From Polyangiaceae bacterium (GTDB taxonomy: Bacteria; Myxococcota_A; Polyangia; Polyangiales; Polyangiaceae): 32,000 bases of DNA. The notes below the pieces were generated by a model that ran no database searches, was not told where the DNA came from, and was given only the letters and a program-made list of their open reading frames with translations. Numbering within the stretch: the first letter of the stretch is position 1; each line of letters starts with the position of its first letter. The stretch is taken from assembly GCA_050300635.1 (NCBI GenBank), contig JBNKYC010000014.1, forward strand, positions 194,175-226,174, written 5' to 3'. This document shows positions 1,957 to 17,156 of the stretch, in pieces. The position numbers and the translations under genes were made by a program.

Positions 1957-2126
1957 CAGCACACGGTTGGGACGGGCTCGTACCCACGAGGTTCCGGTGA
2001 AAAGGGTTCGACTCGAAGTGGACGGAGTCCGAGCGGAGCGGACGTGAGTCAGCGGAGCCGGACGGAGTCCAGTGAGAGACACGGTCCGACGAGCCCCTGC
2101 GAGTCGGAATCGCCGAAGGCGATAGT

Positions 2127-2144
2127 GAATCCCTTCTCCCGCTC
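2127..2144 (+). repeat. 18/18 direct repeat of 1736-1753 (tRNA 3' end core; candidate att-type repeat)
   Basis: GAATCCCTTCTCCCGCTC occurs at 1736-1753 and again at 2127-2144. The integrase gene starts 53 bp to the right. Confidence 0.8.
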
Positions 2145-2163
2145 TAGAATAACATAAAGAATC

Positions 2164-2197
2164 AACCGGTTGCGGCACTCGCCTCAGCCGGTTTTTT
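2164..2197 (+). terminator. Hairpin plus T-run (terminator-like)
   Basis: AACCGG-18 nt-CCGGTT followed by TTTTT. It abuts the integrase stop codon. Confidence 0.45.
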
Positions 2198-3507
2198 CAT
2201 TTGATCACCACTTCAGACGCCTGATCACCACCATGATCACCACTTGAGGCTTCGGCGGCCTTTTTAGCCCGCTTGGTCATCAAGTTCACCACCTTGCCTA
2301 AGCCCACCTGCTGCTCCTCACCGCGCACCGTCGAGTAGTGGTGCTGCATCCTCTCGGTCAGATGCCCGCTGATGCTGTGGGTCACCAAATCTTGGACTTC
2401 GGCGGCTCGAGCCAGGTCATTGAAGGTGCGGCGCATGCCATGCTGGGTGAAGGCGTAGCCTAGACCCATTTCTTCTGACACTTCGGCAAAGGGCTTGTTG
2501 AGGACGCTAGGGCTGCGGAATCCGCCGGTGAGGGCAGGGAAGAGCAGCTCTGAATCCTTTTGGGCGTCCGCTGTCAGTTGGTCTTCCACGTGCCAGCGCA
2601 GGACGCGAATCACTTCGATAGGCAAGTGGATGCTGTAGCGGGTCTTCTGCTTGGTGGTGTTGAGCACCAAATCACCTCGGGTTTGCGAGCGTCTGACGAG
2701 CAGACGCCCTTCGTCCCAAGGGACATCCGCATTCTCTCCCATGCGGCGCAGGGGACGCATGGTCGATGGGCGAAGCCCGGTACAGAACCCCAGGAAAGCC
2801 ATGGCGTAGTGCTGCGGGTGCAGCTCGCGCAGGAGCTCCAAAAAGACAGGGACCTGCTCGGGAGCGAGGCTATGTGGTGCTTCTTCTGAATAGGTGACGT
2901 GGTCTGAGGTGTCGAAATCACGCACGTCCTCGGTGGGCGAGCGCGAGAGTTCAAATTGACGAACAGCGGCCTTCATGATCACCCGCAGGATGGAAAGCCA
3001 TCCGTTTGCGGTGTTGGGCGAGTAGTCGCCCAGTGCGATCAAGGTCGCCACCCCTTCGCGCCAGCGGTCGACGTGACCCACACGGATCTCATCGACAGCC
3101 AGTTCTCCGAAGCCAGGGACGAAAAAGTCTTCGTCCTTGCTGTGCGTGCCCGCGATGAGATGGTTGAGCGAATGCTTCCACCTATCGCGACCTGCGGGAC
3201 TACGAATGTCTCTCGTCTGGATCTTTTTCTCCAGCAAGGACACCGCGAAGTCGCCGAAGCGCTGCTTCGGAATGGGGTCCGATCCTGTTTGTGACTGGAG
3301 TCGAACTTTCTCGTCCTCCAACCACTCGAAGGCTAACCTCTCCGTTTCCACGTCGAGAACCTTTCTGATCTCGCGCAGCTTCCCGGTCATCGAATCTTTC
3401 ACTCGGGCGCGCACGACGTAGCCTCCTCCTTTCTTCTCGAATACGCCGGGCAGGCGAGTCGGCCTCACCCAGCTGGTTCCTAGTTTCTTGTACTTCTTCT
3501 TGTCCAT
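2197..3507 (-). CDS. int: Tyrosine recombinase / phage-type integrase
   Basis: The ORF contains a C-terminal catalytic-type region (...GLRPSTMRPLR...HGMRRTFNDLA...GHLTERMQHHY). I set the start at MDKKKYKKLGTSW, which has AAGGAG 7 nt upstream, rather than at the track's 3567. Confidence 0.85.
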   Translation of the reverse strand: MDKKKYKKLGTSWVRPTRLPGVFEKKGGGYVVRARVKDSMTGKLREIRKVLDVETERLAFEWLEDEKVRLQSQTGSDPIPKQRFGDFAVSLLEKKIQTRDIRSPAGRDRWKHSLNHLIAGTHSKDEDFFVPGFGELAVDEIRVGHVDRWREGVATLIALGDYSPNTANGWLSILRVIMKAAVRQFELSRSPTEDVRDFDTSDHVTYSEEAPHSLAPEQVPVFLELLRELHPQHYAMAFLGFCTGLRPSTMRPLRRMGENADVPWDEGRLLVRRSQTRGDLVLNTTKQKTRYSIHLPIEVIRVLRWHVEDQLTADAQKDSELLFPALTGGFRSPSVLNKPFAEVSEEMGLGYAFTQHGMRRTFNDLARAAEVQDLVTHSISGHLTERMQHHYSTVRGEEQQVGLGKVVNLMTKRAKKAAEASSGDHGGDQASEVVIK

Positions 3508-3805
3508 CGGGGACTCCTTCAGTTGAAGGCGCACCCGGACGATCCGAGTACAGGTTACCACCGGCACTTCCCGTCAAGAACCGGTCGAGTTCGGCACGCT
3601 CGAATACATGGGTCCCGCGTCCGCCGCGCCGCCCCGCTGCAGCGAGACGCCCCTCCTTCAGGGCCTTCCGGATGGCCCCTGTTGTCCTGAACCCACAATA
3701 CGCAGCAGCCTCCCTCGTCGTGAGGAAAGGCGAGCGAACCGCACCTCCGGCTTCAACCGAACGATGCTGCGCTAGTGGATTTTCGCGGCGTGCCATTGCT
3801 CCCAA
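3200..3805 (-). CDS. xis: Excisionase-family HTH protein (only the N-terminal ~75 aa are recognisable)
   Basis: FLTTREAAAYCGFRTTGAIRKALKEGRL...HVFERAELDRFL resembles excisionase/MerR-type HTH domains. The frame then stays open for about 300 nt across the int start, so the true 3' end and extent are uncertain. Confidence 0.5.
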   Translation of the reverse strand: MGAMARRENPLAQHRSVEAGGAVRSPFLTTREAAAYCGFRTTGAIRKALKEGRLAAAGRRGGRGTHVFERAELDRFLTGSAGGNLYSDRPGAPSTEGVPDGQEEVQETRNQLGEADSPARRIREERRRLRRARPSERFDDREAARDQKGSRRGNGEVSLRVVGGRESSTPVTNRIGPHSEAALRRLRGVLAGEKDPDERHS

Positions 3806-6878: not shown

Positions 6879-7397
6879 TCAGATCATTCCGTAGGCTTCC
6901 AAGTACGGAAGCCATTCTTCCGGGACGCGGCCGCGGCGCGCGTCGACCATCCCAATCGGGAGGGCCTTGGGCCGCACTGGCTCCATCAGCGGGAACATCC
7001 CCGCTTCGTCACAGCTCAGATTGGCCTTCTTGTTGTTGCAACGCTGACACGCAGCAACGATGTTCTCGAACGTTCGAGGCCCGCCGTGACTCCGAGGAAC
7101 CACATGGTCCATCGTGAGATCACTTCCGGGCAGATGAGCTCCGCAGTACTGGCAGCGGAACTTATCGCGGATCTTCACATTGTGGTCCGAGTACTTGATC
7201 CCCTTCTTGAAACGGGGAGTCATGTGCCGCAGGCGAATGACGGCAGGCACGTTCCAGGTCACGGACGGGGAAGAGACCGTCTCTGAATACTCAGCAATGA
7301 CATCGACCGTTTCCTCGTAGGTCATCTTGATTGCGGCCTGCCAAGGAACCACCTTTATCGGGAAGTACCAGGCCGTGAGGAGCAGTGAATTTCGCAT
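6879..7397 (-). CDS. HNH endonuclease (small McrA/COG1403-like)
   Basis: The motif reads CQYCG...LTMDHVVPRSHGGPRTFENIVAACQRCNNKKAN. The start is set at MRNSLLL, with AAGGAGG upstream. The track's longer N-terminus runs into a non-coding repeat. Confidence 0.8.
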   Translation of the reverse strand: MRNSLLLTAWYFPIKVVPWQAAIKMTYEETVDVIAEYSETVSSPSVTWNVPAVIRLRHMTPRFKKGIKYSDHNVKIRDKFRCQYCGAHLPGSDLTMDHVVPRSHGGPRTFENIVAACQRCNNKKANLSCDEAGMFPLMEPVRPKALPIGMVDARRGRVPEEWLPYLEAYGMI

Positions 7398-7432
7398 CAC
7401 GGCCTCCTTTCCTTTGTTGGTGCGATTGACTG

Positions 7433-7560
7433 TTTCTTTCAGGAGGGCAGAGGCCCTCCTCGTCGCGGGAAGTGAATCCCGGCTCCTCACCTCCACCCAA
7501 GCGACGTGCGCTCCGGCGCCTCCCACTTGGTCGGCGGCGGTACTCGCGCTCTCGTCCCGG
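7433..7560 (-). repeat. Copy 1 of a ~125-bp repeated non-coding element (leader-like, ends ~36 nt before the HNH start)
   Basis: About 88% identical to 8692-8818. Minus-strand hairpins GGAGGGC-CTCT-GCCCTCC and CGGGA-TTCACT-TCCCG are present. Confidence 0.7.
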
Positions 7561-7739
7561 CGCTACCGAGCCTCGTCCTGCCGGTCGCGGAAGACGGGCC
7601 CCGACGCTCCCCGGGCGGAAGGGCGCAGGAAACCACCGGCGACTAAGTAGGAGCCGCTGGATTTCCAGCGGAAGGTGGGGAGGAGAAGCGGAGATTCACT
7701 CTCCGCGACGGAGGGGACGCCGTCCCCTCAAAAAACGAG

Positions 7740-7813
7740 TAGAGCACATGGGAGTTGAACCCATCGCAGGTCCCTTATCAGGAGACCCAGATCAAACCGG
7801 ATCGTCGTGCTCA
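7740..7813 (-). tRNA. tRNA-Ile(GAU)
   Basis: Anticodon arm GTCTC-CTGATAA-GGGAC, T arm ATGGG-TTCAACT-CCCAT. The acceptor forms 6 bp with a U1-U72 mismatch. No CCA is encoded. Confidence 0.65.
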
Positions 7814-7814
7814 G

Positions 7815-7962
7815 TGCTGTCGGCGGGAGTCGTGGCCGAGCCCCGCTAGGGGCGAGCCCCACCGAGATAGTGCGATCGAAGAACGCACTATCGAAGGTCA
7901 CCCGCAATGCCGTGCGGCACGCCGTCTCAGGGCGCTGTGTATGCCTGTTCCACCACGACAGC
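7815..7962 (-). tRNA. tRNA-Leu(GAG)-like, abnormally long (148 nt)
   Basis: Perfect 7-bp acceptor GCTGTCG/CGACAGC with A73. Anticodon arm GCGCC-CTGAGAC-GGCGT and a type II variable arm CCGCA-CGGCAT-TGCGG. About 75 extra nt of hairpins precede the 3' strand, including the motif CTCGGCCACGACTCC. Confidence 0.45.
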
Positions 7963-7963
7963 G

Positions 7964-8081
7964 TGGTACACGCCCTCGGATTCGTGGCCGAGGACGTAGT
8001 CCGAGTCCCGCCGAGCGAAGCGACGGCCACCAGACTTCCCGGGCTTAAACCGGGCACCTCTACCGATTGGGTTAGGCGTGC
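7964..8081 (-). tRNA. tRNA-Leu(UAA), long (118 nt), CCA encoded
   Basis: Acceptor GCACGCC/GGCGTGT followed by ACCA. Anticodon arm CCCGG-TTTAAGC-CCGGG. The variable region is 45 nt and the T arm is CTCGG-CCACGAAT-CCGAG with an 8-nt loop. Confidence 0.55.
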
Positions 8082-8085
8082 CGAG

Positions 8086-8167
8086 CGGAAGGTAGAGAAA
8101 TCGAACCACGCACCTCTCGGTGCCCCTGGTTTTCAAAACCAGTTCGCCTCCATAGGCGGTACCTTCC
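8086..8167 (-). tRNA. tRNA-Ser(UGA)
   Basis: Perfect acceptor GGAAGGT/ACCTTCC with G73. Anticodon arm CTGGT-TTTGAAA-ACCAG and variable arm GCACC-GAGA-GGTGC. The T stem has two mismatches. Confidence 0.6.
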
Positions 8168-8169
8168 GG

Positions 8170-8241
8170 ATGAGGTGACAGGAATTGAACCCGCATCGCC
8201 GGGTTCAAAGCCCAGGGTCTTGACCGTTAGACGACACCTCA
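8170..8241 (-). tRNA. tRNA-Gln(UUG)
   Basis: Perfect acceptor TGAGGTG/CACCTCA, D arm GTCT-AACGGTCA-AGAC, anticodon arm CTGGG-CTTTGAA-CCCGG, T arm GCGGG-TTCAATT-CCTGT. Confidence 0.8.
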
Positions 8242-8394
8242 GAAGTTTTCTTCGCTGCGCAGGCAGCGACGCGCTCAGCACCGCCGACGAGCAAGCCCCA
8301 TTGCGAGTCGCCGGAGCGCCCGCGGAGTTGGGGGGAGGCTCACGCAGCGCTCTGCGCAGAGTGAGGGGGGCTGCATCAGCCCCCGATGAAACAG

Positions 8395-8463
8395 TCGCGA
8401 CGGAAGTATTCGAAACTTCATGCGAGCCCGTATGAAAGGCTGCTCCGACCCTCGGTCGCCGCG
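8395..8463 (-). tRNA. tRNA-Met(CAU), short (69 nt) with a reduced D arm
   Basis: Acceptor CGCGGCG/CGTCGCG, anticodon arm AGCCT-TTCATAC-GGGCT, T arm GAAGT-TTCGAAT-ACTTC. The D region is only CCGA-GGG-TCGG plus a 3-nt connector. A competing 10-bp hairpin lies at 8447-8477. Confidence 0.5.
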
Positions 8464-8540
8464 GTTGCGAGGGTCGGTAATGCTCCGATCTGATCTCCGG
8501 GCCATGAACCCGACGAGCCACTTTTGCTCCATCCTCGCGG

Positions 8541-8613
8541 CGTTTCGGCCAGGACTCGAACCTGAATTTCAGCCTTCGCAGGGCTGCGTCCTGTCCAGTT
8601 GGACGACCAGAAC
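8541..8613 (-). tRNA. tRNA-Arg(GCG)
   Basis: D arm GTCC-AACTGGACA-GGAC, anticodon arm CAGCC-CTGCGAA-GGCTG, T arm TCAGG-TTCGAGT-CCTGG. The acceptor has one mismatch. Confidence 0.75.
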
Positions 8614-8618
8614 AATCG

Positions 8619-8691
8619 CGTTCTCGGCAGGAGTCGAACCTGCACCCATCCGCTTAGAAGGCGGCTGCCCGTCCAATCGAGCCTCGAGAAC
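8619..8691 (-). tRNA. tRNA-Arg(UCU)
   Basis: Perfect acceptor GTTCTCG/CGAGAAC, anticodon loop CTTCTAA, T arm GCAGG-TTCGACT-CCTGC. Confidence 0.8.
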
Positions 8692-8818
8692 TTGTCTTTT
8701 CAGGAGGGCAGAGGCCCTCCTCGTCGTCGGGAGTGAATCCCGACTCCTCACCTCCACCCCTGCGACGTGCGCTCCGGCACCTCCCACTTGGTCGGTGGCG
8801 GTGCTGGCGCTCTCATCA
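8692..8818 (-). repeat. Copy 2 of the ~125-bp repeated element (its end abuts the 5' end of tRNA-Arg(UCU))
   Basis: It aligns with 7433-7560. The internal hairpin is TCGGGA-TTCAC-TCCCGA, with changes at the stem ends that extend the pairing relative to copy 1. Confidence 0.7.
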
Positions 8819-8932
8819 TCGCTTCGCGGTGCTTCGTCCTGGCGGGCGCCGGGCATAAGGGCAGGCCGCAGAACCCGTGAGGGTTCGAGGACCTCGACAA
8901 AAGTTACGGCACGCAGCACACCCGTGGAGGAG

Positions 8933-8983
8933 AGCCGAAGAGGTTTCGCCCTCACTTGTGATGGGGCGGAAACTCGTAGGCCT
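8933..8983 (-). repeat. Copy A of a ~50-nt conserved motif
   Basis: GCCGAAGAGGTTTCGCCCTCACTTGTGATGGGGCGGAAACTCGTAGGCC, compared with 10740-10789. Confidence 0.6.
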
Positions 8984-9058
8984 CCCCCACGGGCAAGCAG
9001 AGTGAAGCGCCATCGTGCACAGTTCGTCGATAAAGGCCGACGGACACGCTGCGCTCGG

Positions 9059-9126
9059 AGATCCGAGTGAGAGTCAAACTCACCCTCGCTGCTTTGCAAC
9101 CAGCGTCGTCCTCGGGACATCGGATC
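9059..9126 (-). tRNA. Short (68 nt) tRNA with a GCA-containing anticodon loop (Cys-like; identity ambiguous)
   Basis: Perfect acceptor GATCCGA/TCGGATC, D region GTCC-CGA-GGAC, anticodon stem CGCTG/CAGCG with the 9-nt loop GTTGCAAAG, a 3-nt variable region, and T arm GTGAG-TTTGACT-CTCAC. Confidence 0.45.
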
Positions 9127-9131
9127 ATTCG

Positions 9132-9203
9132 TACAAGTGGAGGGAATCGAACCCCCGTATCCTGGGTGGAAGCCAGGCATCTTGGCCGCTGGATCACACT
9201 TGC
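9132..9203 (-). tRNA. tRNA-Gly(UCC)
   Basis: Acceptor GCAAGTG/CACTTGT, anticodon arm CCTGG-CTTCCAC-CCAGG, T arm GGGGG-TTCGATT-CCCTC. Confidence 0.75.
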
Positions 9204-9204
9204 T

Positions 9205-9280
9205 TGGAGCCTCTATCGGGATTCAAACCCGAGTCTCTGCCTTACCGGGGCAGCGTTCTGCTCGACTGAACTATGGAGGC
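9205..9280 (-). tRNA. tRNA-Thr(GGU), CCA encoded, C at position 33
   Basis: D arm GTTC-AGTCGAGCA-GAAC, anticodon arm CTGCC-CCGGTAA-GGCAG, T arm TCGGG-TTTGAAT-CCCGA, 3' end TAGAGGC-T-CCA. Confidence 0.7.
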
Positions 9281-9284
9281 ACGG

Positions 9285-9351
9285 AGCCTTATCCCGGAAT
9301 CGAACCGAGTCAGATTGAGTACGAAACAATCCACTTTCCAAAAGCTAAGAC
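9285..9351 (-). tRNA. tRNA-Thr(CGU), short (67 nt) with a reduced D arm
   Basis: Anticodon arm ATTGT-TTCGTAC-TCAAT with a U-U closing pair, T arm CTCGG-TTCGATT-CCGGG, D region CTTT-TGG-AAAG plus TGG. The acceptor pairs at 6 of 7 positions. Confidence 0.5.
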
Positions 9352-9360
9352 AGCACTTTG

Positions 9361-9433
9361 TACACGCTCCCAGATTCGAACTGGGACCTCTCGGGTCTGA
9401 GCCGAGCGCCTCTGCCAGTTGGGCTAAGCGTGC
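9361..9433 (-). tRNA. tRNA with Leu anticodon CAG but a type I (4-nt variable loop) body
   Basis: It folds as GCACGCT TA GCCC AACTGGCAG AGGC G CTCGG-CTCAGAC-CCGAG AGGT CCCAG-TTCGAAT-CTGGG AGCGTGT A. The 5' half is a close paralogue of the Leu(UAA) gene. Confidence 0.65.
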
Positions 9434-9435
9434 AT

Positions 9436-9507
9436 TGGTGGAGCCGTCGGGAATCCAACCCGCAAGCTCTCTGTGCAAGAGAGAGCCGTAGCGCACTACA
9501 CAACCCC
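9436..9507 (-). tRNA. tRNA-Cys(GCA), compact, CCA encoded
   Basis: Anticodon arm CTCTC-TTGCACA-GAGAG. The acceptor GGGGTTG/CGGCTCC has three G-U pairs. D region GTAG-TGCG-CTAC, 3-nt variable region, T loop TTGGATT. Confidence 0.55.
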
Positions 9508-9512
9508 ATCAG

Positions 9513-9578
9513 CAGACCCACAAGGAATCGAACCCTGTCGACAACGGATTTGGAGTCCGTCCGGCGGCCGTCCGATCC
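9513..9578 (-). tRNA. tRNA-Trp(CCA)-like, very short (66 nt)
   Basis: Anticodon arm ACGGA-CTCCAAA-TCCGT and T arm CAGGG-TTCGATT-CCTTG. Only 11 nt lie between the acceptor and the anticodon stem. The acceptor is weak, with three G-U pairs and one mismatch. Confidence 0.4.
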
Positions 9579-9583
9579 CAATC

Positions 9584-9621
9584 GTGCAATGCGAAACGGA
9601 CGCGAGTCCGTGAAGCTGCAC
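9584..9621. repeat. Left copy of a ~38-nt inverted repeat pair (partner at 11308-11346)
   Basis: The reverse complement GTGCAGCTTCACGGACTCGCGTCCGTTTCGCATTGCAC aligns with GTGCAGCTTCACGGACTAGCGTCCGTTCCGCTTTGTCAC. The first 17 nt are identical. Confidence 0.75.
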
Positions 9622-9636
9622 ATGCGATACTACTGA

Positions 9637-9704
9637 CTAAATAAAGGCGCGTCGCGTGTCCTGCGGTAGCAGGCCCCTTTCAATCGCACCGATCCGCGAC
9701 GCGC
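9637..9704 (-). terminator. Terminator-like structure just after tRNA-His
   Basis: On the minus strand a 10-bp stem GCGCGTCGCG/CGCGACGCGC encloses a CCTGC-TACC-GCAGG hairpin and is followed by CTTTATTT. The 38-nt loop is atypical for a terminator. Confidence 0.35.
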
Positions 9705-9705
9705 G

Positions 9706-9773
9706 GGGTGTTGCTGAGGATCGAACTCAATAACCCGGGTCACAACCGAGTTTGCCCCCAGGGCGACAACACC
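9706..9773 (-). tRNA. tRNA-His(GUG), short (68 nt) with a reduced D arm
   Basis: Perfect acceptor GGTGTTG/CAACACC with C73. Anticodon arm CTCGG-TTGTGAC-CCGGG, T arm TTGAG-TTCGATC-CTCAG, D region GCCC-TGG-GGGC plus AAA, 3-nt variable region. No G-1 is encoded. Confidence 0.55.
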
Positions 9774-9774
9774 A

Positions 9775-9861
9775 TGGCGGAAGCTGGACGAGTCGAACGT
9801 CATTCCTTTCGGAACGCACCGATTAGCAGTCGGGCCAAGCGCCACCGCCTGTTCAGCTTCC
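9775..9861 (-). tRNA. tRNA-Ser(GCU), CCA encoded
   Basis: Perfect acceptor GGAAGCT/AGCTTCC followed by GCCA. Anticodon loop CTGCTAA, variable arm TTCC-GAAA-GGAA, T loop TTCGACT. Confidence 0.7.
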
Positions 9862-9865
9862 GTAG

Positions 9866-9937
9866 TCGGAGACCTGGGGGTCGAACCCAGCAGCACACGG
9901 TCCCAAGCCGCGCGGCACACCCCGTGCCTTGACTCCG
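9866..9937 (-). tRNA. tRNA-Pro(UGG)
   Basis: C1-G72 and A73. Anticodon arm CGCGG-CTTGGGA-CCGTG, T arm CTGGG-TTCGACC-CCCAG, compact D arm GGCAC-GGGGT-GTGCC. Confidence 0.7.
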
Positions 9938-9942
9938 AATAG

Positions 9943-10015
9943 TGGATCCCCTCAGTTTCGAACTGAGCTCTCCTGTTCTTCAGACAGGCGCTTTCACCAG
10001 ATTAGCTTGAGATCC
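9943..10015 (-). tRNA. tRNA-Phe(GAA)
   Basis: It folds as GGATCTC AA GCTA ATCTGGTGA AAGC G CCTGT-CTGAAGA-ACAGG AGAG CTCAG-TTCGAAA-CTGAG GGGATCC A. Confidence 0.8.
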
Positions 10016-10019
10016 GTAG

Positions 10020-10092
10020 TACTCGGGGCCGGGAACGATCCAGCAACCGTCTCCTTGTAAGGGAGCTGCGCTACCAATTGCGCCACCCGAGC
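10020..10092 (-). tRNA. tRNA-Val(UAC) with an unusual T loop
   Basis: D arm GCGC-AATTGGTA-GCGC, anticodon loop CTTACAA, T arm GCTGG-ATCGTTC-CCGGC (A54/U58 in place of U54/A58), acceptor GCTCGGG/CCCGAGT. Confidence 0.7.
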
Positions 10093-10093
10093 T

Positions 10094-10169
10094 TGGCGCT
10101 TCGTACGGGAATCGAACCCGTCTCCAAGTGATCGACAATCACCCTGCCTCCCCAGCGGCATCACGAAGC
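10094..10169 (-). tRNA. tRNA-Asp(GUC), CCA encoded
   Basis: Perfect acceptor GCTTCGT/ACGAAGC followed by GCCA. D arm TGCC-GCTGGGGA-GGCA, anticodon loop TTGTCGA, T arm ACGGG-TTCGATT-CCCGT. Confidence 0.85.
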
Positions 10170-10173
10170 ATTC

Positions 10174-10311
10174 ACGCGCCGTAGGGTCACAGACCCGAAG
10201 GCCCGTAAGAAACATGGCGCGTAGCAATTCTGCCCACCAGACCGGAGTGTTCCGTCCTCACCCTTCCGGGGGGCGGAACACGCAGGTCAATGTGTGGCAA
10301 GCAGAATGCAG
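10174..10311 (-). other. Two stem-closed structured elements between tRNA-Asp and tRNA-Glu (not foldable as tRNAs)
   Basis: At 10174-10222 the ends ACGCGCC/GGCGCGT pair around GGCC-TTCG-GGTC and GGGTC-TGT-GACCC hairpins. At 10223-10311 the ends GCATTCTGC/GCAGAATTGC pair around an 8-bp GTGTTCCG/CGGAACAC hairpin. Confidence 0.3.
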
Positions 10312-10383
10312 CACCCCCTGTCGGTATCGATCCGACTCTTTCAGGTTGAAAACCTGACGACCTAGCCAGTAGTCGAAGGGGGC
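10312..10383 (-). tRNA. tRNA-Glu(UUC) with an unusual T loop
   Basis: It folds as GCCCCCT TC GACT ACTGGCTA GGTC G TCAGG-TTTTCAA-CCTGA AAGA GTCGG-ATCGATA-CCGAC AGGGGGT G. Confidence 0.75.
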
Positions 10384-10392
10384 ATAGTTGAC

Positions 10393-10461
10393 TCGCGTGG
10401 CTACGCGACCCGCCTTCGGCGGGCTCGTCGACCTTCATGGACTCCGTCCACCAAGGTGGAC
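10393..10461. other. Cluster of three GC-rich hairpins, including a tandem GTGGACGGAGTCCAC motif
   Basis: The hairpins are TCGCGT-GGCT-ACGCGA, CCCGCC-TTC-GGCGGG and GTCCAC-CAAG-GTGGAC. The 13-mer GGACTCCGTCCAC occurs twice (10439-10451 and 10458-10470). Confidence 0.5.
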
Positions 10462-10475
10462 TCCGTCCACTACGG

Positions 10476-10556
10476 TTCCGGGGGCAGGAATCGTGGCCGA
10501 GCGAAGCGAGCCCCGCCGAGCGGAGCGAAGGCCACCCGCACACGTCGGGCCCCAGG
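10476..10556 (-). other. tRNA-like element sharing the CTCGGCCACGATTCC motif of the long Leu genes
   Basis: Ends CCTGGGG/CCCCGGA pair at 6 of 7 positions, with a C1-A72 mismatch. It has a CCCG-ACGTGTG-CGGG hairpin and a GCGGG/CCTGC stem around an internal GTGGCC...GGCCAC hairpin. No D arm is present. Confidence 0.25.
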
Positions 10557-10562
10557 AGCTTG

Positions 10563-10634
10563 CTTCGGGGATAGGACTCGAACCTATATGAACTCGCTTA
10601 ACAGGCGAGTGCCTTACCAATCGGCCACCCCGAA
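10563..10634 (-). tRNA. tRNA-Asn(GUU)
   Basis: Perfect acceptor TTCGGGG/CCCCGAA with G73. Anticodon arm CTCGC-CTGTTAA-GCGAG, T arm ATAGG-TTCGAGT-CCTAT. Confidence 0.85.
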
Positions 10635-10739
10635 TCATCGCCACACCCTCCTCGGCTAATTGACTTCCAAGCGGCCGCAGGACCTTCGGGTCCGAGGACC
10701 AAAAGAAACAGTTGGCGGGAAGCACACTCAATCAAGAAG

Positions 10740-10789
10740 GCCGAAGAGTACCGCCCTCACTCTGTGATGGGGCGAGACTCGTAGGCCCG
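10740..10789 (-). repeat. Copy B of the ~50-nt conserved motif
   Basis: GCCGAAGAGTACCGCCCTCACTCTGTGATGGGGCGAGACTCGTAGGCC, compared with 8933-8983. Confidence 0.6.
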
Positions 10790-10891
10790 GATGTGGCGAG
10801 CAAAAAATTGCTGAGTATTCAGTTGTCACGGATCAGGAGGAGCGAATGCTCCTGTGACTTGCGAAACGAAGCGTTTCACCTCGTTTCGCAG

Positions 10892-10963
10892 TGGATCTGG
10901 AGGGACTCGAACCCTCGTCCAACCGGGTAAGAACCGGCGACTCTGCCGCTGAGTTACAGATCC
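10892..10963 (-). tRNA. tRNA-Lys(CUU)
   Basis: Perfect acceptor GGATCTG/CAGATCC, D arm ACTC-AGCGGCA-GAGT, anticodon arm GCCGG-TTCTTAC-CCGGT, T arm GAGGG-TTCGAGT-CCCTC. Confidence 0.85.
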
Positions 10964-10967
10964 AAGG

Positions 10968-11005
10968 CCCGGATGAGGTGCCTCCTTGTGTTCACCTCAT
11001 CCGGG
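10968..11005. other. 13-bp perfect hairpin between the two Lys tRNA genes
   Basis: CCCGGATGAGGTG-12 nt-CACCTCATCCGGG. Confidence 0.7.
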
Positions 11006-11036
11006 GAAACGACACTGGATGTGCCGTGGAATTGAG

Positions 11037-11109
11037 TGGGACCAGGGGGCTTCGAACCCCCACCCCCTCGATTAAAAGTCGAGTGCGCTACCAGTTACGC
11101 CACAGTCCC
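11037..11109 (-). tRNA. tRNA-Lys(UUU)
   Basis: It folds as GGGACTG TG GCGT AACTGGTA GCGC A CTCGA-CTTTTAA-TCGAG GGGGT GGGGG-TTCGAAG-CCCCC TGGTCCC A. Confidence 0.85.
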
Positions 11110-11196
11110 AAGTCCAAGCTTGTGACTGCGTTTCTTCATTCGATACATAGTTCTCTCCTGTTCGCGCTCGAGATCGAGCGCGCAATTCACCCTTCG

Positions 11197-11279
11197 TGGA
11201 GCCCCCGAGATTCGAACTCGGCAAGCGCGCTGCGCAGCGGGGTTACAATCCGCTTGAGGTCCCGAGCCTCATGAGCTCC
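11197..11279 (-). tRNA. tRNA-Tyr(GUA), type II
   Basis: Acceptor GGAGCTC/GGGCTCC with A73. D arm GAGG-CTCGGGA-CCTC, anticodon loop TTGTAAC, variable arm GCGC-AGC-GCGC, T arm CCGAG-TTCGAAT-CTCGG. Confidence 0.75.
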
Positions 11280-11657: not shown

Positions 11658-11673
11658 TGCGAGGGGCGTGCCA
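11658..11673 (-). promoter_or_regulatory. Candidate sigma54 (-24/-12) promoter pointing into the tRNA array
   Basis: The minus strand reads TTGGCACGCCCCTCGCATT, i.e. TGGCAC-N5-TCGCA. It lies between the rtcR stop (11755) and tRNA-Tyr (11279). Confidence 0.5.
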
Positions 11674-11754: not shown

Positions 11755-13338
11755 TTAGGATATGTCATCCCAGGACAGAGAGTATCGGTTCAAGTACTTC
11801 CGCACCCGGTCTGCGTCATTGACCGACGAACGCCTCTTTCGGGATTCGGCGAATAGAGTGCGGCCTGCCTCCGAAAGAGAGTTTGAGTCCACGCACACCC
11901 GCAGAACCTCGGCCAGCTGAACCCGGTCAAACAGATCAAGGTCGGCGATGACATCGGCTCCGAGGAACCGCGAGAGGATATCGTCCCCCTCCTCACCGCC
12001 TGGCCGCTCCCACGACTCTTTCAGGCGTTCGATCTCTTCCTTGACACCAGCCGCTGTGATCCTGCCCCCCTCTGCGAGGGTCGCCATGCGCTCAAAAGCG
12101 GCACTGTAGTCGCGAAAGTTGCCAGACCAGCTAGTGGACGGCGCCTTGGCAAAATCGAGAAATAGCTTACGGGCCTCACGGTTCATGGTGACGCGTTCGC
12201 CGTGCGTTTCTGCCCATCGCTCAGTTTCGTATTCGAGGTTGGGCTCCATATCCTCGGGCCTATCCCTCAGAGCGGGGAGATGGAACGCCCACAGATTGAT
12301 GCGAGCGAGAAGGTCATCGCGAAAAGTCCCCTGAGCCACAGAGCCGCGCAGATCGCGGTTGGTCCCGCTGATCAGCTGGAAGTCGCTCTCCGCCTCTCGA
12401 TCGGCGCCAACAGGAAGGAACCTCTTCTCCTCGATGGCGCGAAGGAGCATGGCCTGCTCCTCAAGTCCGAGCTCGCCAATTTCATCGAGAAAGAGGATGC
12501 CGCCGTTGGCCTCACGGAGGAGACCCTCACGTGGGCCTGACGCGCCAGTGAACGCGCCCTTCTTATGCCCAAAGAGGGCACTCATGGCGCCGTCGCCTCG
12601 GATAGTGGCACAGTTCACCTCGACAAAGGGCCCGGAAACCTGGCCGCGCAGCTTCTTTAGCTCATAGACCCGTCGCGCCAAATGGCTCTTGCCAGCGCCG
12701 GTCGGACCCATCAAGAGCAGGGGGGACTTCGATGCAATGGCGACCTGCTCGATGCGGTCGATTTGCTTGTTGAACGCCTTGTTCTTTGTAGCGATTCCTG
12801 ACTTGAGGAAGTCCCGGCTCTCCCGCTGCTCGAGTTTGAACCGAGACGCGAGCTTGTCGTACTTGGACAGGTCAAGATCGATGACGCTATAGGAGCCAAC
12901 ATTCCCCTTTTGCCGGGATGGACTCGTCTGAAGCAGCTGACCTGGGATGTGGCGAGACTCCGTCAGCAAGAACTGGCAAATCTGAGCTACGTGCGTCCCG
13001 GTCGTGATGTGGACAAGGTACCTTTCCTTGCTCTGCTTGAACGAGTACTTGGAGGCAAAGTCGTGGAGCGCTGCATAGACCTCCTCAAAGTCCCAGGGGT
13101 CGGTGGTCTCAAGGTGATGCGGACACACCTGGGTTTCGGGCGAGACGGAACGAATATCCTTTGTGATCTGCTCAGCCAGCTTCTCGAACTTCGACTGGTA
13201 CAGAAGCTCGAACCGGTCGACGACCAAGTCCTCGTGCCGACACACGTCAACGGTCGGACGCCACTGAAGCCAACGGTCGCCCCGCTTCTTCATGGCATCC
13301 AGAGTCACGCCCAACATCCCGATGACGACAGTTTTCAT
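11755..13338 (-). CDS. rtcR: Sigma54-dependent transcriptional activator RtcR (CARF-like N-domain, AAA+ domain, C-terminal DNA-binding region)
   Basis: Walker A LLMGPTGAGKSHLA and the GAFTGA motif (HKKGAFTGA). The N-terminal ~185 aa resemble the RtcR sensor domain. The gene is divergent from rtcBA. Confidence 0.85.
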   Translation of the reverse strand: MKTVVIGMLGVTLDAMKKRGDRWLQWRPTVDVCRHEDLVVDRFELLYQSKFEKLAEQITKDIRSVSPETQVCPHHLETTDPWDFEEVYAALHDFASKYSFKQSKERYLVHITTGTHVAQICQFLLTESRHIPGQLLQTSPSRQKGNVGSYSVIDLDLSKYDKLASRFKLEQRESRDFLKSGIATKNKAFNKQIDRIEQVAIASKSPLLLMGPTGAGKSHLARRVYELKKLRGQVSGPFVEVNCATIRGDGAMSALFGHKKGAFTGASGPREGLLREANGGILFLDEIGELGLEEQAMLLRAIEEKRFLPVGADREAESDFQLISGTNRDLRGSVAQGTFRDDLLARINLWAFHLPALRDRPEDMEPNLEYETERWAETHGERVTMNREARKLFLDFAKAPSTSWSGNFRDYSAAFERMATLAEGGRITAAGVKEEIERLKESWERPGGEEGDDILSRFLGADVIADLDLFDRVQLAEVLRVCVDSNSLSEAGRTLFAESRKRRSSVNDADRVRKYLNRYSLSWDDIS

Positions 13339-13609: not shown

Positions 13610-13685
13610 GGTTCTGAAGGGAAGCAGGTTCCCGAAAGGCCGCCTCATCCACGTGGAGTGGGTTCGATCCCCACCAGAAGCACCA
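13610..13685 (+). ncRNA. tRNA-like element in the rtcB 5' leader (ends in ACCA; no anticodon stem)
   Basis: It folds as GGTTCTG AA GGGA-AGCAGGT-TCCC ... GTGGG-TTCGATC-CCCAC CAGAAGC A CCA. The 24 nt in the anticodon position (GAAAGGCCGCCTCATCCACGTGGA) form no 5-bp stem. A perfect alternative 5' strand GCTTCTG lies at 13483-13489 near the predicted TSS. Confidence 0.5.
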
Positions 13686-13723
13686 GCCATCAAGTTGATT
13701 GTCACTTAGACTGGAGAGAAGAA

Positions 13724-14947
13724 ATGAGTACCTACGAACTGCGCGAACCTCACGGCGGCGTTCCGATCAAGACCTGGACCAAGGGCGTGCCCGTGGAACC
13801 AGAGGCTGTTGATCAGCTCACCAACATCGCGCGCCTGCCCATCGTCCACAAGTGGGTCGCGGCCATGCCGGACGTTCACCTGGGGATCGGTGCGACCGTA
13901 GGCAGCGTTATCCCCACCGTGGGAGCGGTGATTCCTGCAGCAGTCGGCGTGGATATCGGCTGCGGAATGATGGCCGTGGAAACCACGCTGAAGGCCAGCG
14001 ATCTTCCAGATAACCTCGGCCCCATGCGAAGCACCATCGAACGAGCAGTCCCCCATGGGCGCGGACGGTCCGGGCGTCGCGGGGACAAAGGTTCTTGGAG
14101 CGACGTTCCGAACCGCGTCGGAAAGGTCTGGAAAGGGCTAGAATCTGGCTTCAAAGCCATCGTCGACAAGCATCCAGGCGTCGAGAAGAGCAACAATGTC
14201 GTTCATCTCGGGACGCTCGGAACCGGAAACCACTTCATCGAGGTTTGCCTCGATGAAAAGGACAACGTCTGGTTCATGCTGCACAGTGGCTCACGCGGAG
14301 TAGGAAACCGCATCGGTTCGCACTTCATCGCCCTGGCGAAGAAGGACATGCAGCGTCATCAACAGCATCTGCCCGACGCCAACCTTTCCTACTTTGAGGA
14401 AGGGAGCGAACACTTCCACGACTACGTGGAAGCCGTCGAGTGGGCGCAGAGCTTCGCGCGTCATAACCGAGAACTCATGATGCACGCTGTACTCGATTCG
14501 GTTCGCCGGTTGCCCAAGTTTCCGTCTTTCCAAACGGCAAAGAGCGCCGTCAACTGCCACCACAACTACGTTTCACGCGAGTTCCACTACGGAAAGAACG
14601 TGTTCGTGACCCGCAAGGGAGCTGTGCATGCAGGTGAAGGCGTCCTGGGCATCATCCCCGGAAGCATGGGAGCTCGCTCCTACATTGTCCGGGGAAAGGG
14701 AAACCCAGAAAGCTTCTGTAGCTGTAGTCACGGAGCGGGGCGCGTGATGTCCCGTACCAAGGCAAAGAAGAAGTTCTCCTTGGAGGACCATCGCCGAGCG
14801 ACTGAAGGCGTCGAATGCCGCAAGGACAAGGACGTCATCGACGAAACGCCTGGTGCCTACAAGGACATCGACAAGGTGATGGAGGCCCAGAGTGATCTGG
14901 TCGAAATCCTCCACACGCTCAAGCAGGTGGTCTGCGTGAAGGGGTGA
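13724..14947 (+). CDS. rtcB: RNA-splicing ligase RtcB (3'-phosphate/5'-hydroxyl RNA ligase)
   Basis: Typical RtcB sequence blocks (IARLPIVHKWVAAMPDVHLGIGATVGSV, GTLGTGNHFIEV, HSGSRGVGN, NCHHNY, SCSHGAGR). The start is set at MSTYELREP with GGAGAG upstream. The track's 13658 start overlaps the tRNA-like element. Confidence 0.92.
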   Translation: MSTYELREPHGGVPIKTWTKGVPVEPEAVDQLTNIARLPIVHKWVAAMPDVHLGIGATVGSVIPTVGAVIPAAVGVDIGCGMMAVETTLKASDLPDNLGPMRSTIERAVPHGRGRSGRRGDKGSWSDVPNRVGKVWKGLESGFKAIVDKHPGVEKSNNVVHLGTLGTGNHFIEVCLDEKDNVWFMLHSGSRGVGNRIGSHFIALAKKDMQRHQQHLPDANLSYFEEGSEHFHDYVEAVEWAQSFARHNRELMMHAVLDSVRRLPKFPSFQTAKSAVNCHHNYVSREFHYGKNVFVTRKGAVHAGEGVLGIIPGSMGARSYIVRGKGNPESFCSCSHGAGRVMSRTKAKKKFSLEDHRRATEGVECRKDKDVIDETPGAYKDIDKVMEAQSDLVEILHTLKQVVCVKG

Positions 14948-14999: not shown

Positions 15000-16028
15000 A
15001 TGCTTACTATCAACGGATCTATGGGAGAGGGCGGTGGCCAGGTCCTGCGTTCATCGCTTGCCCTCTCGGCTGTGACCGGGACTCCGTTTCGCATCGAAGG
15101 GATCCGTGCGAAGCGCAGTCGCCCCGGTCTGCTTCGGCAGCATCTAACCGCTGTTCGGGCTATGGCTGAGGTTTGTTCGGCGCGCGTCTCTGGGGCCGAA
15201 TTGGGCTCGCGAGAGCTTACCTTCGAACCTGGTGTCACCAAGCACGGACACTACGAGTTCGCCGTCGGTACTGCCGGTAGCGCCACGCTCGTCTTTCAGA
15301 CGGTGCTCCCAGCACTGCTCACTACCGCTGGCGAATCTCGACTTGTCTTCGAAGGGGGAACGCACAACGCGTGGGCTCCACCTGTCGACTTCATCCAACA
15401 CACCTTCCTTCCGCTGCTTCATCGCATGGGAGCGACTGTTCAGATCGAATTGGAGCGCCACGGGTTCTACCCGGCTGGTGGCGGGCGCTTCGCAGTACGC
15501 ATCGCCGGCGGCTCACCTCTTTCGGGACTCGAACTTTCAGAGCGCGGGGATATCGAAAGCGTGCTGCTTGACGCATTGGTCAGTCAGATCCCCGAGCATG
15601 TCGCGGAGCGCGAGGTGCGCACGTTGGCTCGTCAACTCGCCGATCTACCCGTCGGCGTCGAGACCCATGCCGTGAACAGCCCAGGCCCAGGAAATGTCGC
15701 GATGGTGAGAGTGCGCTCAGCGCACCTGACTGAGGTGTTCACCTCCTTCGGAGAACGCGGGGAGAAGGCGGAGACGATTGCTCACCGCCTCGTTGGAGAT
15801 GTGCGCAAGTACGTCGCCTCAGAAGTCCCGGTCGGAGAACACCTCGCGGATCAGCTTCTGATCCCACTGGCTCTCGCGGGAGAGGGTGCCTTTGTGACGG
15901 GCGAGCCAAGTCTGCACACAACGACTAACCTCGAGGTGATTGGGATGTTCTTGCCCGGACGGCTCACGCTTGAACGCGGCTCCGCCGGCGCGCGCATTAT
16001 CGCGAAAGGGGGGCGTCATGAGGGCTGA
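15000..16028 (+). CDS. rtcA: RNA 3'-terminal phosphate cyclase RtcA
   Basis: GEGGGQVLRSSLALSAVTGTPFRIEGIRAKRSRPGLLRQHL is typical of RtcA. The gene lies immediately downstream of rtcB. Confidence 0.9.
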   Translation: MLTINGSMGEGGGQVLRSSLALSAVTGTPFRIEGIRAKRSRPGLLRQHLTAVRAMAEVCSARVSGAELGSRELTFEPGVTKHGHYEFAVGTAGSATLVFQTVLPALLTTAGESRLVFEGGTHNAWAPPVDFIQHTFLPLLHRMGATVQIELERHGFYPAGGGRFAVRIAGGSPLSGLELSERGDIESVLLDALVSQIPEHVAEREVRTLARQLADLPVGVETHAVNSPGPGNVAMVRVRSAHLTEVFTSFGERGEKAETIAHRLVGDVRKYVASEVPVGEHLADQLLIPLALAGEGAFVTGEPSLHTTTNLEVIGMFLPGRLTLERGSAGARIIAKGGRHEG

Positions 16029-16070
16029 TATGAGCAAGCTCATCGTGGAGCGTCCCCGGGGCGGGCGCGG

Positions 16071-17156
16071 CTATCCGCAGAGAAGCGAACGCTTCGCTCG
16101 GAACATGGAGGATTGGCCGAGCCGAGCACGCAGAAGGTGCGACGGAAAGAGACGTGAATGCTCAAGAAGCCCCAACGGGCCCTTGAGCCACAGCAGAAAC
16201 AATCGAAGCCGCTTTTGCTTCCGAGTTCTCGCCAACACCACATGGAAGTGAGGCCAGCTCCGACGACGGAGGGTGGCCCCGTTGTAGATAAGTGAGTAGC
16301 AGCTGGGATCGCCGTAGCGTTCCCGCGCCAGCTCCCGAGCTTCGCGGTGCGCGGCGAAAAAGAACTCCTCCTCGTCCTCGGTTCCACCTGTCAGTCTTCC
16401 TTGCGAGATCACGAAATACTCCGTGAGACCCGGCACCTTCTTTTGGATTACTTCCAGCGTCCCTGGGCGTCCTTTCTTGAGGTTCTCCAGTTCCCACTCC
16501 ATGTTCTCGCGCGCCTGTGCCGCGAAAGCGCCCTCGAACAGAGGGTTCGCGTAGAGACTCTTCCTGCGCAGCATTCCCCGAAGGAACCGCCTTCGCCCCC
16601 AGCGATACTCCCAGTTCGCGTATGGGGAATGCTCCTCTCGCACCTGCCGCGCGTATTCCCGGTACCGCTCGGCGGGGCTACCCAGAATCCAGAGATCGGC
16701 GTCGCACATGATGGTGGAGAGCTGCACTCCTCGAGCGTCGTGGTCCTTCGTCTCAAGGATGAGCGAGATGACCCCCTCGATGACTTCTCTCTTTAGCCCG
16801 CCCTCTCTCGCGAGGCTTTGAAACAGTTCAGCACTCCGGTGCTCGTTGTCCTGGGCTCCGGGGTCGTAGACCACGTCGTGAAACCACAAGGCCAGCTCCA
16901 GCTCCCCCGGCACTTCGCCCCAACCCACGATTGCGGCGTATTGCTCCACGATCTGAAGGCACTCCTCGATATGCTGGAGGTTGTGAAAGTGCCGATGTGA
17001 CTGTGAGTAGGCTGACTTCAGGACGCGAAAGACGGCCTGGGCGTTCGGGTCGTTCCCCCATGCGTTCACGAACCTCCGCCCTAACTCAGCCTCGCCGCTA
17101 AGTACCGGTGCGTGAAAGCCCCTTCCGTAGCGCCTCTCGATTTCCTTCGTTTTCAT
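16071..17156 (-). CDS. HD-superfamily phosphohydrolase (COG4339-like) with a ~130-aa C-terminal extension
   Basis: The N-terminal ~225 aa carry RHFHNLQHIEEC...LALWFHDVVYDP...NEHRSAE. The extension contains IYNGATLRRRSWPHFHVVL, a possible degenerate HIT-like motif. Paralogue of 20076-20786. Confidence 0.7.
   Translation of the reverse strand: MKTKEIERRYGRGFHAPVLSGEAELGRRFVNAWGNDPNAQAVFRVLKSAYSQSHRHFHNLQHIEECLQIVEQYAAIVGWGEVPGELELALWFHDVVYDPGAQDNEHRSAELFQSLAREGGLKREVIEGVISLILETKDHDARGVQLSTIMCDADLWILGSPAERYREYARQVREEHSPYANWEYRWGRRRFLRGMLRRKSLYANPLFEGAFAAQARENMEWELENLKKGRPGTLEVIQKKVPGLTEYFVISQGRLTGGTEDEEEFFFAAHREARELARERYGDPSCYSLIYNGATLRRRSWPHFHVVLARTRKQKRLRLFLLWLKGPLGLLEHSRLFPSHLLRARLGQSSMFRAKRSLLCG

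Follow-up and report, generated by a model that had tools for sequence, protein, structure and literature searches.

The window analysed here, a 32,000-nt stretch of a Polyangiaceae bacterium genome, carries on its minus strand a long array of tRNA genes (7739..11279) in which the T-loops of two tRNA-Leu genes and of a displaced tRNA-Asn half are occupied by short DNA inserts. ARAGORN called 20 tRNA genes in these 3.5 kb; the interrupted or odd genes come in addition, and at least four tRNA genes are uncalled. Read on the minus strand from high to low coordinates, the locus consists of rtcR, a sigma-54-type promoter, a conserved leader of ~380 nt, the array, an HNH gene, a small open reading frame (ORF), an SPFH/Band-7 gene, and a tyrosine integrase gene. 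Orthologous arrays are present in L001 and in L002, a Polyangiaceae metagenome-assembled genome (MAG) with an RtcR 94% identical to that of the window. The inserts of the window belong to one family, named W here, and a second family, M, was found in the array of another myxobacterial lineage.

The two tRNA-Leu genes (7815-8081) lie on the minus strand and are otherwise ordinary tRNA genes, but the region was missed by ARAGORN and by the Rfam tRNA models, even at E ≤ 10. When a single T was put in place of each insert in silico, ARAGORN called tRNA-Leu(gag) and tRNA-Leu(taa), so the cloverleaf outside the inserts is intact. The tRNA-Leu(GAG) gene (7815..7962), of type II, contains the 67-nt insert W2 (GACCTTCG...GGGGCTCGGCCA; 7833..7899, minus strand), which stands in for T55, with T54 at 7900 and C56 at 7832; its uninterrupted orthologue in L002 (6763-6845) has 83 nt. 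The tRNA-Leu(UAA) gene (7964..8081), with an encoded CCA, contains the 44-nt insert W1 (GGCCGTCGCTTCGCTCGGCGGGACTCGGACTACGTCCTCGGCCA; 7985..8028, minus strand), and its uninterrupted orthologue in L002 (6686-6759) has 74 nt. Both orthologues lie between Ser(UGA) and Ile(GAU) in the L002 array. In a three-way alignment, Leu-GAG reads GCGGG-T-(GACCTTCG...GGGGCTCGGCC-A)-CGACT-CCCGC in the window and GCGGG-TT-CGACT-CCCGC in L002. Leu-UAA reads AAGT-CT.GG-T-(GGCC...CTCGGCC-A)-CGAAT-CCGAG in the window and AAGT-CTCGG-TT-CGAAT-CCGAG in L002; one C of the 5' strand of its T stem is missing alongside W1, a 1-nt deletion. An earlier interpretation made from this DNA alone (the sequence-only reading) had given the lengths of the two genes correctly as 148 and 118 nt and had put the extra nucleotides before the T arm and the 3' strand. 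Their actual place is inside the T-loop, 3' of T54 and 5' of C56 in both genes (in Leu-GAG, GCGGG-T54-(67 nt, 7899 to 7833)-C56GACT-CCCGC), and the variable region is not affected. As a separate observation, the array tRNA-Leu(CAG) (9360-9433, minus strand) and tRNA-Leu(UAA) (7964-8081 in the window and 6686-6759 in L002) are of class I size, 74 nt with a short variable loop, which is unusual among bacterial Leu tRNAs; the long variable arm is retained in Leu(GAG).

The 15-mer CTCGGCCACGAnTCC occurs exactly three times in the window, always on the minus strand (7826-7840, 7978-7992, and 10487-10501), and four matches with up to two mismatches were counted against 0.62 expected from shuffles, so the shared motif noticed in the sequence-only reading is real. 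The conserved block that had been taken for the end of the insert is a composite. Its part CTCGGCCA does come from the 3' end of the insert, whereas CGAnTCC comes from the T-loop and T-stem of the host, where CGA(n)T-CC varies among hosts just as it does in their uninterrupted orthologues. The third copy of the motif falls at insert W3 (40 nt; 10494..10533, minus strand), which is ~90% identical to W1 across its first 27–30 nt (90% identity over the 30 nt in common). The resemblance among the inserts holds up in alignment: the four complete W copies form one family, GGT^G(G/A)C(C/T)nTCG-CTyCG-CTyGGyGGGrCTCG...CTCGGCC(A/G)^C(G/A)A, where ^ marks the junctions, and their ends are conserved. W2 consists of the family core plus a nested palindrome, ATAGTGCGTT/ATCGCACTAT, around CTTCG.

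The element at 10476-10556 that had been described as tRNA-like does share the insert, W3, as proposed; it is, however, no element of its own kind but the displaced old 3' half of tRNA-Asn (10476..10541, minus strand), with the T arm GCGGG/CCTGC followed by the acceptor 3' strand CCCCGGA as in L002. The context of W3 is GCGGG-T-(..)-CGATT-CCTGC-CCCCGGA, and without W3 this half equals the 3' half of the L002 tRNA-Asn exactly (GCGGGTTCGATTCCTGCCCCCGGA). The current tRNA-Asn(GUU) (10562..10634, minus strand; called by ARAGORN) has a new 3' half (TTCATATAGGTTCGAGTCCTATCCCCGAA) by comparison with L002, inserted just upstream of the old, disabled half. The Asn-Glu spacer is missing in L002, where Asn abuts Glu directly.

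Contigs from public sequencing runs that match the region contain both filled and empty alleles. The salt-marsh DNA runs X6, X8, and X9 hold empty alleles whose flanks carry 0–1 mismatches (99–100% identity); 7833-7899 is skipped exactly, with a single T instead, and 7985-8031 is skipped, with CGGTT instead. In run X8, Leu-GAG is empty and Leu-UAA is filled. W2-like sequence was also found, in the source-study runs X1, X2, and X10, fused to tRNA bodies that are uninterrupted in the window: to Phe-GAA (..GAGCTCAGT^GACC.. and ..GCGCTCGGCCA^CGAAACTGAG), to Ser-UGA (..GGTGCGTGGT^GACCACCGAGATAG..), to a Leu-CAG-like tRNA, and to a Trp-like tRNA with the anticodon UCA. In L003, a MAG with an RtcR 91% identical to that of the window, a 45-nt W copy occupies the T-loop of tRNA-Lys(UUU), which has a C61T change giving a G53-U61 pair. 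W is thus present in at least eight different tRNA genes. Joined forms identical to those in DNA were also seen in RNA-library contigs from metatranscriptomes (X3, X43, X44, X45), including the exact skip of W2. The joined forms carry T55, where the filled allele has A. These RNA-library contigs are transcripts of empty alleles, or DNA carry-over from them, and not splice products, because T55 is not encoded by the filled allele and the joined form occurs in DNA.

These data bear on the plainest explanation, that nothing unusual is present: only the long variable arms of ordinary type II Leu tRNAs, a motif shared by chance, or an error of assembly. Long variable arms are the norm in bacterial Leu tRNAs, and the three short W copies are individually no more stable than shuffled sequence, both of which would agree with it. 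The extra nucleotides, however, lie between positions 54 and 56 and not at 44–48, where those of a type II tRNA belong, and Leu-GAG has its own normal 13-nt variable arm besides the insert. The orthologues of 74 and 83 nt lack the extra sequence, which also disposes of an extended variable or T region, one of the options of the sequence-only reading; the tRNA models of ARAGORN and Rfam fail on the filled genes. The filled form recurs in independent assemblies and runs (L001, X2, X4, X8, L003), and three exact 15-mers are far above chance. The explanation is refuted by the motif count, the orthologues, the alignment, and the empty alleles in DNA, and we give it practically no credence.

The second family was found in L009, a Myxococcales MAG with an RtcR 79% identical to that of the window. 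In its tRNA-Glu(UUC) and tRNA-Ser(CGA) genes, a 69-nt copy of M lies precisely at the T54-T55 junction (the two copies are 93% identical), and removal of M restores GGTTCGA exactly (GGT^TCGA). At both sites, just these 69 nt are missing from DNA contigs of runs X27 and X30; Ser-CGA and Glu-UUC, filled by M in L009, are uninterrupted in L351; and run X29 has an M copy after T54 of tRNA-Gly(GCC). M and W have no common sequence. The longer W and M members are nevertheless alike in layout, with two hairpins separated by a spacer of ~12 nt, 6–7 nt before the first hairpin, and 7–8 nt after the second; the predicted folds of W2 (z-score −3.2) and M (W2/M range −3.2 to −3.75) each consist of two hairpins placed 6–8 nt from either end. 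The structure of the short W1 and W3 is weaker than that of W2 and M. Terminal complementarity is limited to 4–6 bp in W (TGGCC/GGCCA) and is lacking in M. Three further features were noted in this lineage. A weak match to YrlA (Y RNA-like; 28.6 bits against a gathering score of 69, E = 0.003) lies at 5715-5626 on the minus strand of L009, and the translation of 4940-3360 (minus strand) in the same array resembles a TROVE/Ro60 (rsr) protein, judged by eye only. In L351, a 200-aa reverse-transcriptase (RVT_1) fragment (15539-16141, minus strand) lies between rtcR and the M-lineage tRNA array.

Taken over both families, W occurs in at least eight tRNA genes and M at three sites, and empty alleles are known for five sites. 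The inserts are multi-copy insertions at the DNA level, at the same inter-nucleotide position whatever the tRNA identity, and among near-identical strains their presence varies independently from one site to the next. Such a pattern is the signature of site-specific mobile DNA, because the insertion sites, at least 11 in total, all fall at positions 54–56 of unrelated tRNAs and each is facultative in near-identical strains. We therefore favor, as the probable though not certain explanation, that W and M, two families unrelated to each other, are small DNA insertion elements of 40–69 nt that form hairpins, are non-autonomous, and insert specifically into tRNA T-loop DNA, within G53-T54^T55-C56. 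Among the options left by the sequence-only reading, that of a small mobile hairpin is the one upheld by the orthologous empty sites, the occurrence in at least eight different tRNA genes, and the polymorphism between co-occurring strains.

An intron-like element had been another of those options. In its fullest form, the inserts would be protein-spliced tRNA introns, a bacterial counterpart of the archaeal non-canonical introns, excised by an endoribonuclease and re-joined by the neighbouring RtcB ligase. The arrays of both families adjoin rtcR-rtcB-rtcA and RlaP genes, the rest of each cloverleaf is intact, and the exact GGTTCGA left after removal of M is what splicing should yield; similar inserts at one position in different tRNAs also parallel archaeal intron transposition (PMC4033280). 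The known introns of Thermoproteales (Fujishima et al. 2010, as summarised in PMC4033280) resemble W and M in being shorter than 100 nt, in occupying non-anticodon positions including the T arm, and in placing related inserts in different tRNA species within heterogeneous populations. They differ in being spliced through a bulge-helix-bulge motif by EndA and RtcB. No bulge-helix-bulge pairing was seen at the W2 or M1 junctions in a check by hand, the minimum-free-energy folds lack such a motif, and the 4 nt past the 5' junction (CCUU, AACU) cannot pair with exon C56-N59. RtcB is encoded, but no EndA-like gene or domain was found among the window ORFs scanned. Removal of W would shorten the T-loop to 6 nt with no U55, or leave an A at position 55, so that U55 would not be restored, and the host is a bacterium. 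The joined forms occur in DNA (runs X6, X8, X9, X27, and X30; genomes L002 and L351), every joined W form of the RNA libraries has the T55 that the filled allele does not encode, and the Asn gene was replaced and not spliced. The linkage to rtcB, moreover, is described in passages of PMC8421152 as a general property of long tRNA arrays. We consider splicing of this kind improbable, and just as doubtful is the broader proposal that the inserts form a bacterial class of enzymatically processed tRNA introns, or RNA elements whose excision leaves 2',3'-cyclic-phosphate and 5'-OH ends joined by the adjacent RtcB/RtcA.

Self-splicing fares no better. Group I introns (tRNA-Leu UAA, fMet, Arg, Ile) interrupt bacterial tRNA genes, including tRNA-Leu(UAA), as the inserts do; they exceed 200 nt, have a catalytic core, and sit in the anticodon loop, whereas the inserts of 40–69 nt sit in the T-loop and have no room for a catalytic core of ~100 nt or more (P3-P9). 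No Rfam family, intron families included, matches the inserts (E ≤ 10 in the window, E ≤ 1 in L009). Bulge-helix-bulge, hammerhead, and other small-ribozyme readings were dropped for want of motifs and of Rfam hits.

A different RNA-level explanation is that the mature RNA keeps the hairpin and gains a new role from it: the RNA would draw off tRNA-targeting nucleases as a decoy or sponge, partner Ro/Rsr much as a Y RNA does, or signal to RtcR. The RNA-library contig X11 retains W1, and the 3' end of W, CTCGGCC(A/G), is more conserved than pairing alone requires. The interrupted tRNA-Glu of L009 lies 66 nt upstream of the TROVE/Ro-like gene judged from its translation, with the weak YrlA-like match nearby, and in passages of PMC8421152 a role as sponges for toxin RNases is proposed for operonic tRNAs. 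On the other hand, the sites are facultative even in near-identical strains, the same site is taken by two unrelated sequences, and the identity of the host is arbitrary (Leu, Asn, Lys, Phe, Ser, Glu, Gly). Compensatory variation is scant, its single hint being the W 3' hairpin of L003, both sides of which have a matching loss of 1 nt; the inserts match no RNA family, and the window has no Ro gene. The Y-RNA version was dropped, as the L009 match lies beside the inserts and not within them. We regard a retained, functional hairpin as a poor prospect overall.

The main mechanistic rival to transposition concerns repair. In this scenario, illegitimate repair or recombination would have occurred repeatedly at a T-loop DNA site that is fragile or is cut, for example, by the array-linked HNH endonuclease or by a T-loop-specific integrase. 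The inserts would be the footprints of these events, and existing filled copies would have spread by short-homology repair in a homing-like manner. The W junctions are indeed "messy", with T55 changed to A and the 1-nt deletion in Leu-UAA. tRNA 3' halves are duplicated in the same arrays, as with Asn in the window and with Glu-CUC in L009 (5149-5223). HNH genes are found with the arrays examined here, as they are with L-arrays in passages of PMC8421152, and a tyrosine integrase gene with a T-loop fragment lies at 1995-3567 of the window. An enzyme cutting the universal GGTTCGA in DNA would, however, hit every tRNA gene, which seems untenable. Different tRNA genes share only ~3 + 7 nt of homology around the site, the right flanks show no co-conversion, each host keeping its own CGAnT, and L002 has the HNH gene and no inserts. 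We judge this scenario unlikely, though less so than processing or retention of the inserts as RNA.

The regions named in connection with such events have features of their own. At 1995-2090 (plus strand), by the integrase gene (2197-3567, minus strand), a tRNA 3' fragment (GGGTTCGACTC) is followed by GTGGACGGAGTCC repeats, which are found again in the Asn-Glu spacer (10470-10420) and after tRNA-Ile in L002; the region may be an att site or an island boundary. A 12-mer at 2029-2040, beside this fragment, had been counted as a further copy of the insert motif; it was rejected as a fourth W copy, being on the opposite strand and inside an unrelated repeat (GGACGGAGTCC...). In L009 (5223-5149, minus strand), a 73-nt duplicate of the tRNA-Glu(CUC) 3' end (CAAGTCTCCCCAG.GACACCA) follows with a 52-nt spacer and is missing in runs X27 and X31. 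It looks like a replacement of a tRNA 3' half, as with Asn in the window.

We next describe the host locus. The rtcR gene (11755..13338, minus strand, from the window annotation) lies upstream of the array on the same strand, and its product is 91–94% identical to RtcR of Polyangiaceae and "delta proteobacterium" MAGs. Divergent from it are rtcB (13658-14947) and rtcA (15000-16028), with two RlaP genes next. Between rtcR and the array, the sigma-54-type promoter TGGCACGCCCCTCGCA (11658..11673, minus strand) is the sole match in the window, against 0.05 expected, and is conserved in L002 and L003, as is the leader of ~380 nt (11650-11290) that precedes the first array tRNA. Because this promoter and leader are conserved between rtcR and the array, the data suggest that RtcR controls transcription of the whole array, which tRNA damage would then induce. 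On the other side, the HNH endonuclease gene (6879..7526, minus strand; Pfam HNH) flanks the array, and it is at most a weak candidate for a role in mobility.

Dense tRNA genes with adjacent HNH, SPFH, rtcR, rtcB, rtcA, and RlaP genes recall the L-arrays of cyanobacteria and other phyla, which, in the parts of PMC8421152 consulted, combine a long tRNA array with an HNH "homing endonuclease", rtcB, and a slipin gene. The HNH gene beside L-arrays is reported there as conserved, and in Anabaena the trn operon, rtcB, the HNH gene, and the slipin gene belong to one stress regulon, as passages of PMC8421152 and PMC10272220 describe. According to the same passages, L-arrays resemble the window locus in having more than 20 dense tRNA genes, an adjacent HNH endonuclease gene, an SPFH/slipin gene, rtcB linkage, and some pseudogenes. 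They differ from it in the regulatory region, since the array of the window follows rtcR and a sigma-54-type promoter and not TrcR repeats. Because its gene set matches that of L-arrays, the host locus belongs to a known type of system, connected in this case to RtcR and sigma-54.

Searches anchored on the neighbours of the array extended this picture. When HNH homologues were used as anchors, no further insert-bearing arrays were found, and L336 proved to be a rearranged array tail. With RtcR homologues as anchors, most loci had no array or a decayed one (L337-L350), and L351 gave the empty M sites. Of the nine viral contigs scanned for tRNAs, six (L323, L325-L329) have homologues of the array HNH gene (36–40% identity) only a few kb away from tRNA arrays; the linkage between HNH gene and array therefore reaches phage-like contigs. 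The 15-mer had 120 matches in viral contigs, all of them due to chance and none in a tRNA context, and the specific W and M patterns had none there. The metagenome-wide pattern GGTGRCCKTCGN{18,48}CTCGGCCACGA likewise gave 120 matches, all chance occurrences in high-GC coding DNA, and a megablast comparison of the array with phage records gave no match. Within the 32-kb window, no W copy was found outside T-loops. A relaxed script for T-loop inserts yielded many false chimeras of adjacent tRNAs, and only the W and M cases withstood inspection.

Other observations on the array and the window were made in passing. An element "B" of ~140 nt (CTGCTTGCC..GGCCTACGAG..CCGCCCCATCACA.GTGAGGGCG..CTTCGGC..GGTCCTCGAACCC..GGGTTCTGCGGC) occurs in array spacers of the window (minus strand; 10815-10636, 10320-10165, and 9020-8850), of L336 (40-200), and of L003 (~14100-14200). 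The copy at 10815-10636 is missing from the otherwise identical L001 and from L002, so B is polymorphic too. At ~9864-9775 and ~9590-9515 (minus strand), two further tRNA-like genes were missed by ARAGORN. The first has the anticodon GCU and an 8-bp acceptor stem (GGAAGCTG/CAGCTTCC), with an allo-tRNA- or Sec-like shape; the second is Trp-like with the anticodon CCA, and a strain in run X2 has UCA instead, which would read UGA. Away from the array, the ORF at 21448-22857 (plus strand), between a TetR gene and a Ser/Thr kinase gene, is a full-length match to the PADLOC candidate defence family PDC-S46 (E = 5e-161).

If W and M are mobile elements, they must move in trans, because they are far too small to encode anything. 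A trans-acting enzyme would make the copies. Besides the element's own hairpins and conserved ends, it would recognise the conserved T-loop/T-arm, possibly as a hairpin in single-stranded DNA. The lack of target duplication, the precise empty sites, and the subterminal hairpins would recall HUH-type movement on single-stranded DNA. That the inserts define a new DNA-mobility mechanism recognising the folded T-arm of tRNA genes is a weaker reading. Models based on IS91 (target GTTC), Tc1/IS630 (target TA), integrons (G^TT), and serine or tyrosine recombinase cores were considered by our own reasoning, and none yields the observed junctions.

Several points weigh against insertion by such mobile elements. 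No transposase, RAYT, or other mobilising enzyme was found; the window has no Y1 transposase, and its sole transposase-like gene is an IS91-type Y2 fragment, whose known target rule does not fit. Insertion of W is not clean cut-and-paste, given the A that replaces T55 and the extra deletion in Leu-UAA. The left-flank rule of 3–4 nt (RGT) is insufficient on its own to account for T-loop specificity, and the statements "T-loop only" and "array only" are based on ~11 contexts from array regions and short run contigs. The RNA-library contig that keeps W1 points only to possible transcription of a filled allele, and DNA carry-over is possible there.

The expected consequence for the RNA follows from the established structure of tRNA. 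U54-A58, Psi55, and C56 form the T-loop and its contacts to G18 and G19 of the D-loop; RNase P, the synthetases, EF-Tu, and the ribosome depend on the resulting elbow, and an arm between positions 54 and 56 would abolish it. W would remove U55 and M would split T54 from Psi55, so that the elbow between T-loop and D-loop would be destroyed in either case, and an interrupted gene most likely gives a non-functional tRNA. The replaced Asn half, the T-stem nucleotide lost from Leu-UAA, and the G53-U61 pair of the L003 tRNA-Lys agree with such harm. The hits may be tolerated where they are since the hosts would be redundant genes of an accessory array linked to RtcR and sigma-54; hits in the array can persist because it is an accessory, redundant tRNA set, and insertions in housekeeping tRNA genes would presumably be purged. 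The tRNA-Asn gene was apparently rescued when it gained a new 3' half, which lies upstream of the disabled half.

Small hairpin elements are well known from bacterial genomes. Miniature inverted-repeat transposable elements (MITEs), the PATEs of IS200/IS605, and the REP/REPIN sequences moved by RAYT are tens of nucleotides long, multi-copy, strongly folding, non-coding, and polymorphic in presence or absence. W and M agree with MITEs and other non-autonomous elements in having related copies at multiple loci and sites that are polymorphic for presence, and with IS200/IS605-derived PATE or REP-type elements in having subterminal hairpins, no terminal inverted repeat or target-site duplication, and a precise empty site (W2, M); no target duplication and precise empty sites are likewise typical of IS200/IS605-type elements. 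They are unlike classical MITEs, which have terminal inverted repeats and a target-site duplication, as neither family duplicates its target and W loses T55. Known families of hairpin elements insert in intergenic DNA or 3' of a 4–5 nt motif, and we know of none reported inside tRNA T-loops; W further differs from them in replacing a target nucleotide, and no cognate transposase of W or M was found in the window. The intervening sequences (IVS) of 23S rRNA offer another comparison. They too are facultative hairpins that vary between strains and take the place of the loop in a conserved stem-loop of a stable RNA gene; RNase III excises them without re-ligation, and the rRNA still works. Unlike an IVS-bearing rRNA, a tRNA nicked or expanded at its elbow is not expected to work.

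The interruptions of tRNA genes described in bacteria are group I introns in the anticodon loop only, and protein-spliced, sometimes "transposing" introns are described only in Archaea (PMC4033280). The literature searched yielded no account of T-loop inserts, either for bacterial tRNA genes or for L-arrays, which is not proof of novelty, and the passages searched in PMC8421152 and PMC10272220 make no mention of them. On this basis the inserts would be small, mobile, and non-autonomous, with a new and very specific target; the locus that carries them is of a known type.

In summary, two unrelated families of tiny elements strike one inter-nucleotide position of the most conserved loop of tRNA, and natural populations show filled and empty alleles with identical flanks. 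Since tRNA finders miss the insert-bearing genes, tRNA counts in such arrays and "missing" isoacceptors need care. If the inserts are processed as RNA, they would give bacterial RtcB, an enzyme without settled physiological substrates, a natural target for splicing; as processed introns they would also link tRNA maturation to the RtcR-driven induction of the array. As selfish DNA, they would represent a new target specificity, and accessory tRNA arrays would be safe havens that absorb the hits, with array genes that may be repaired through swapped-in new 3' halves.

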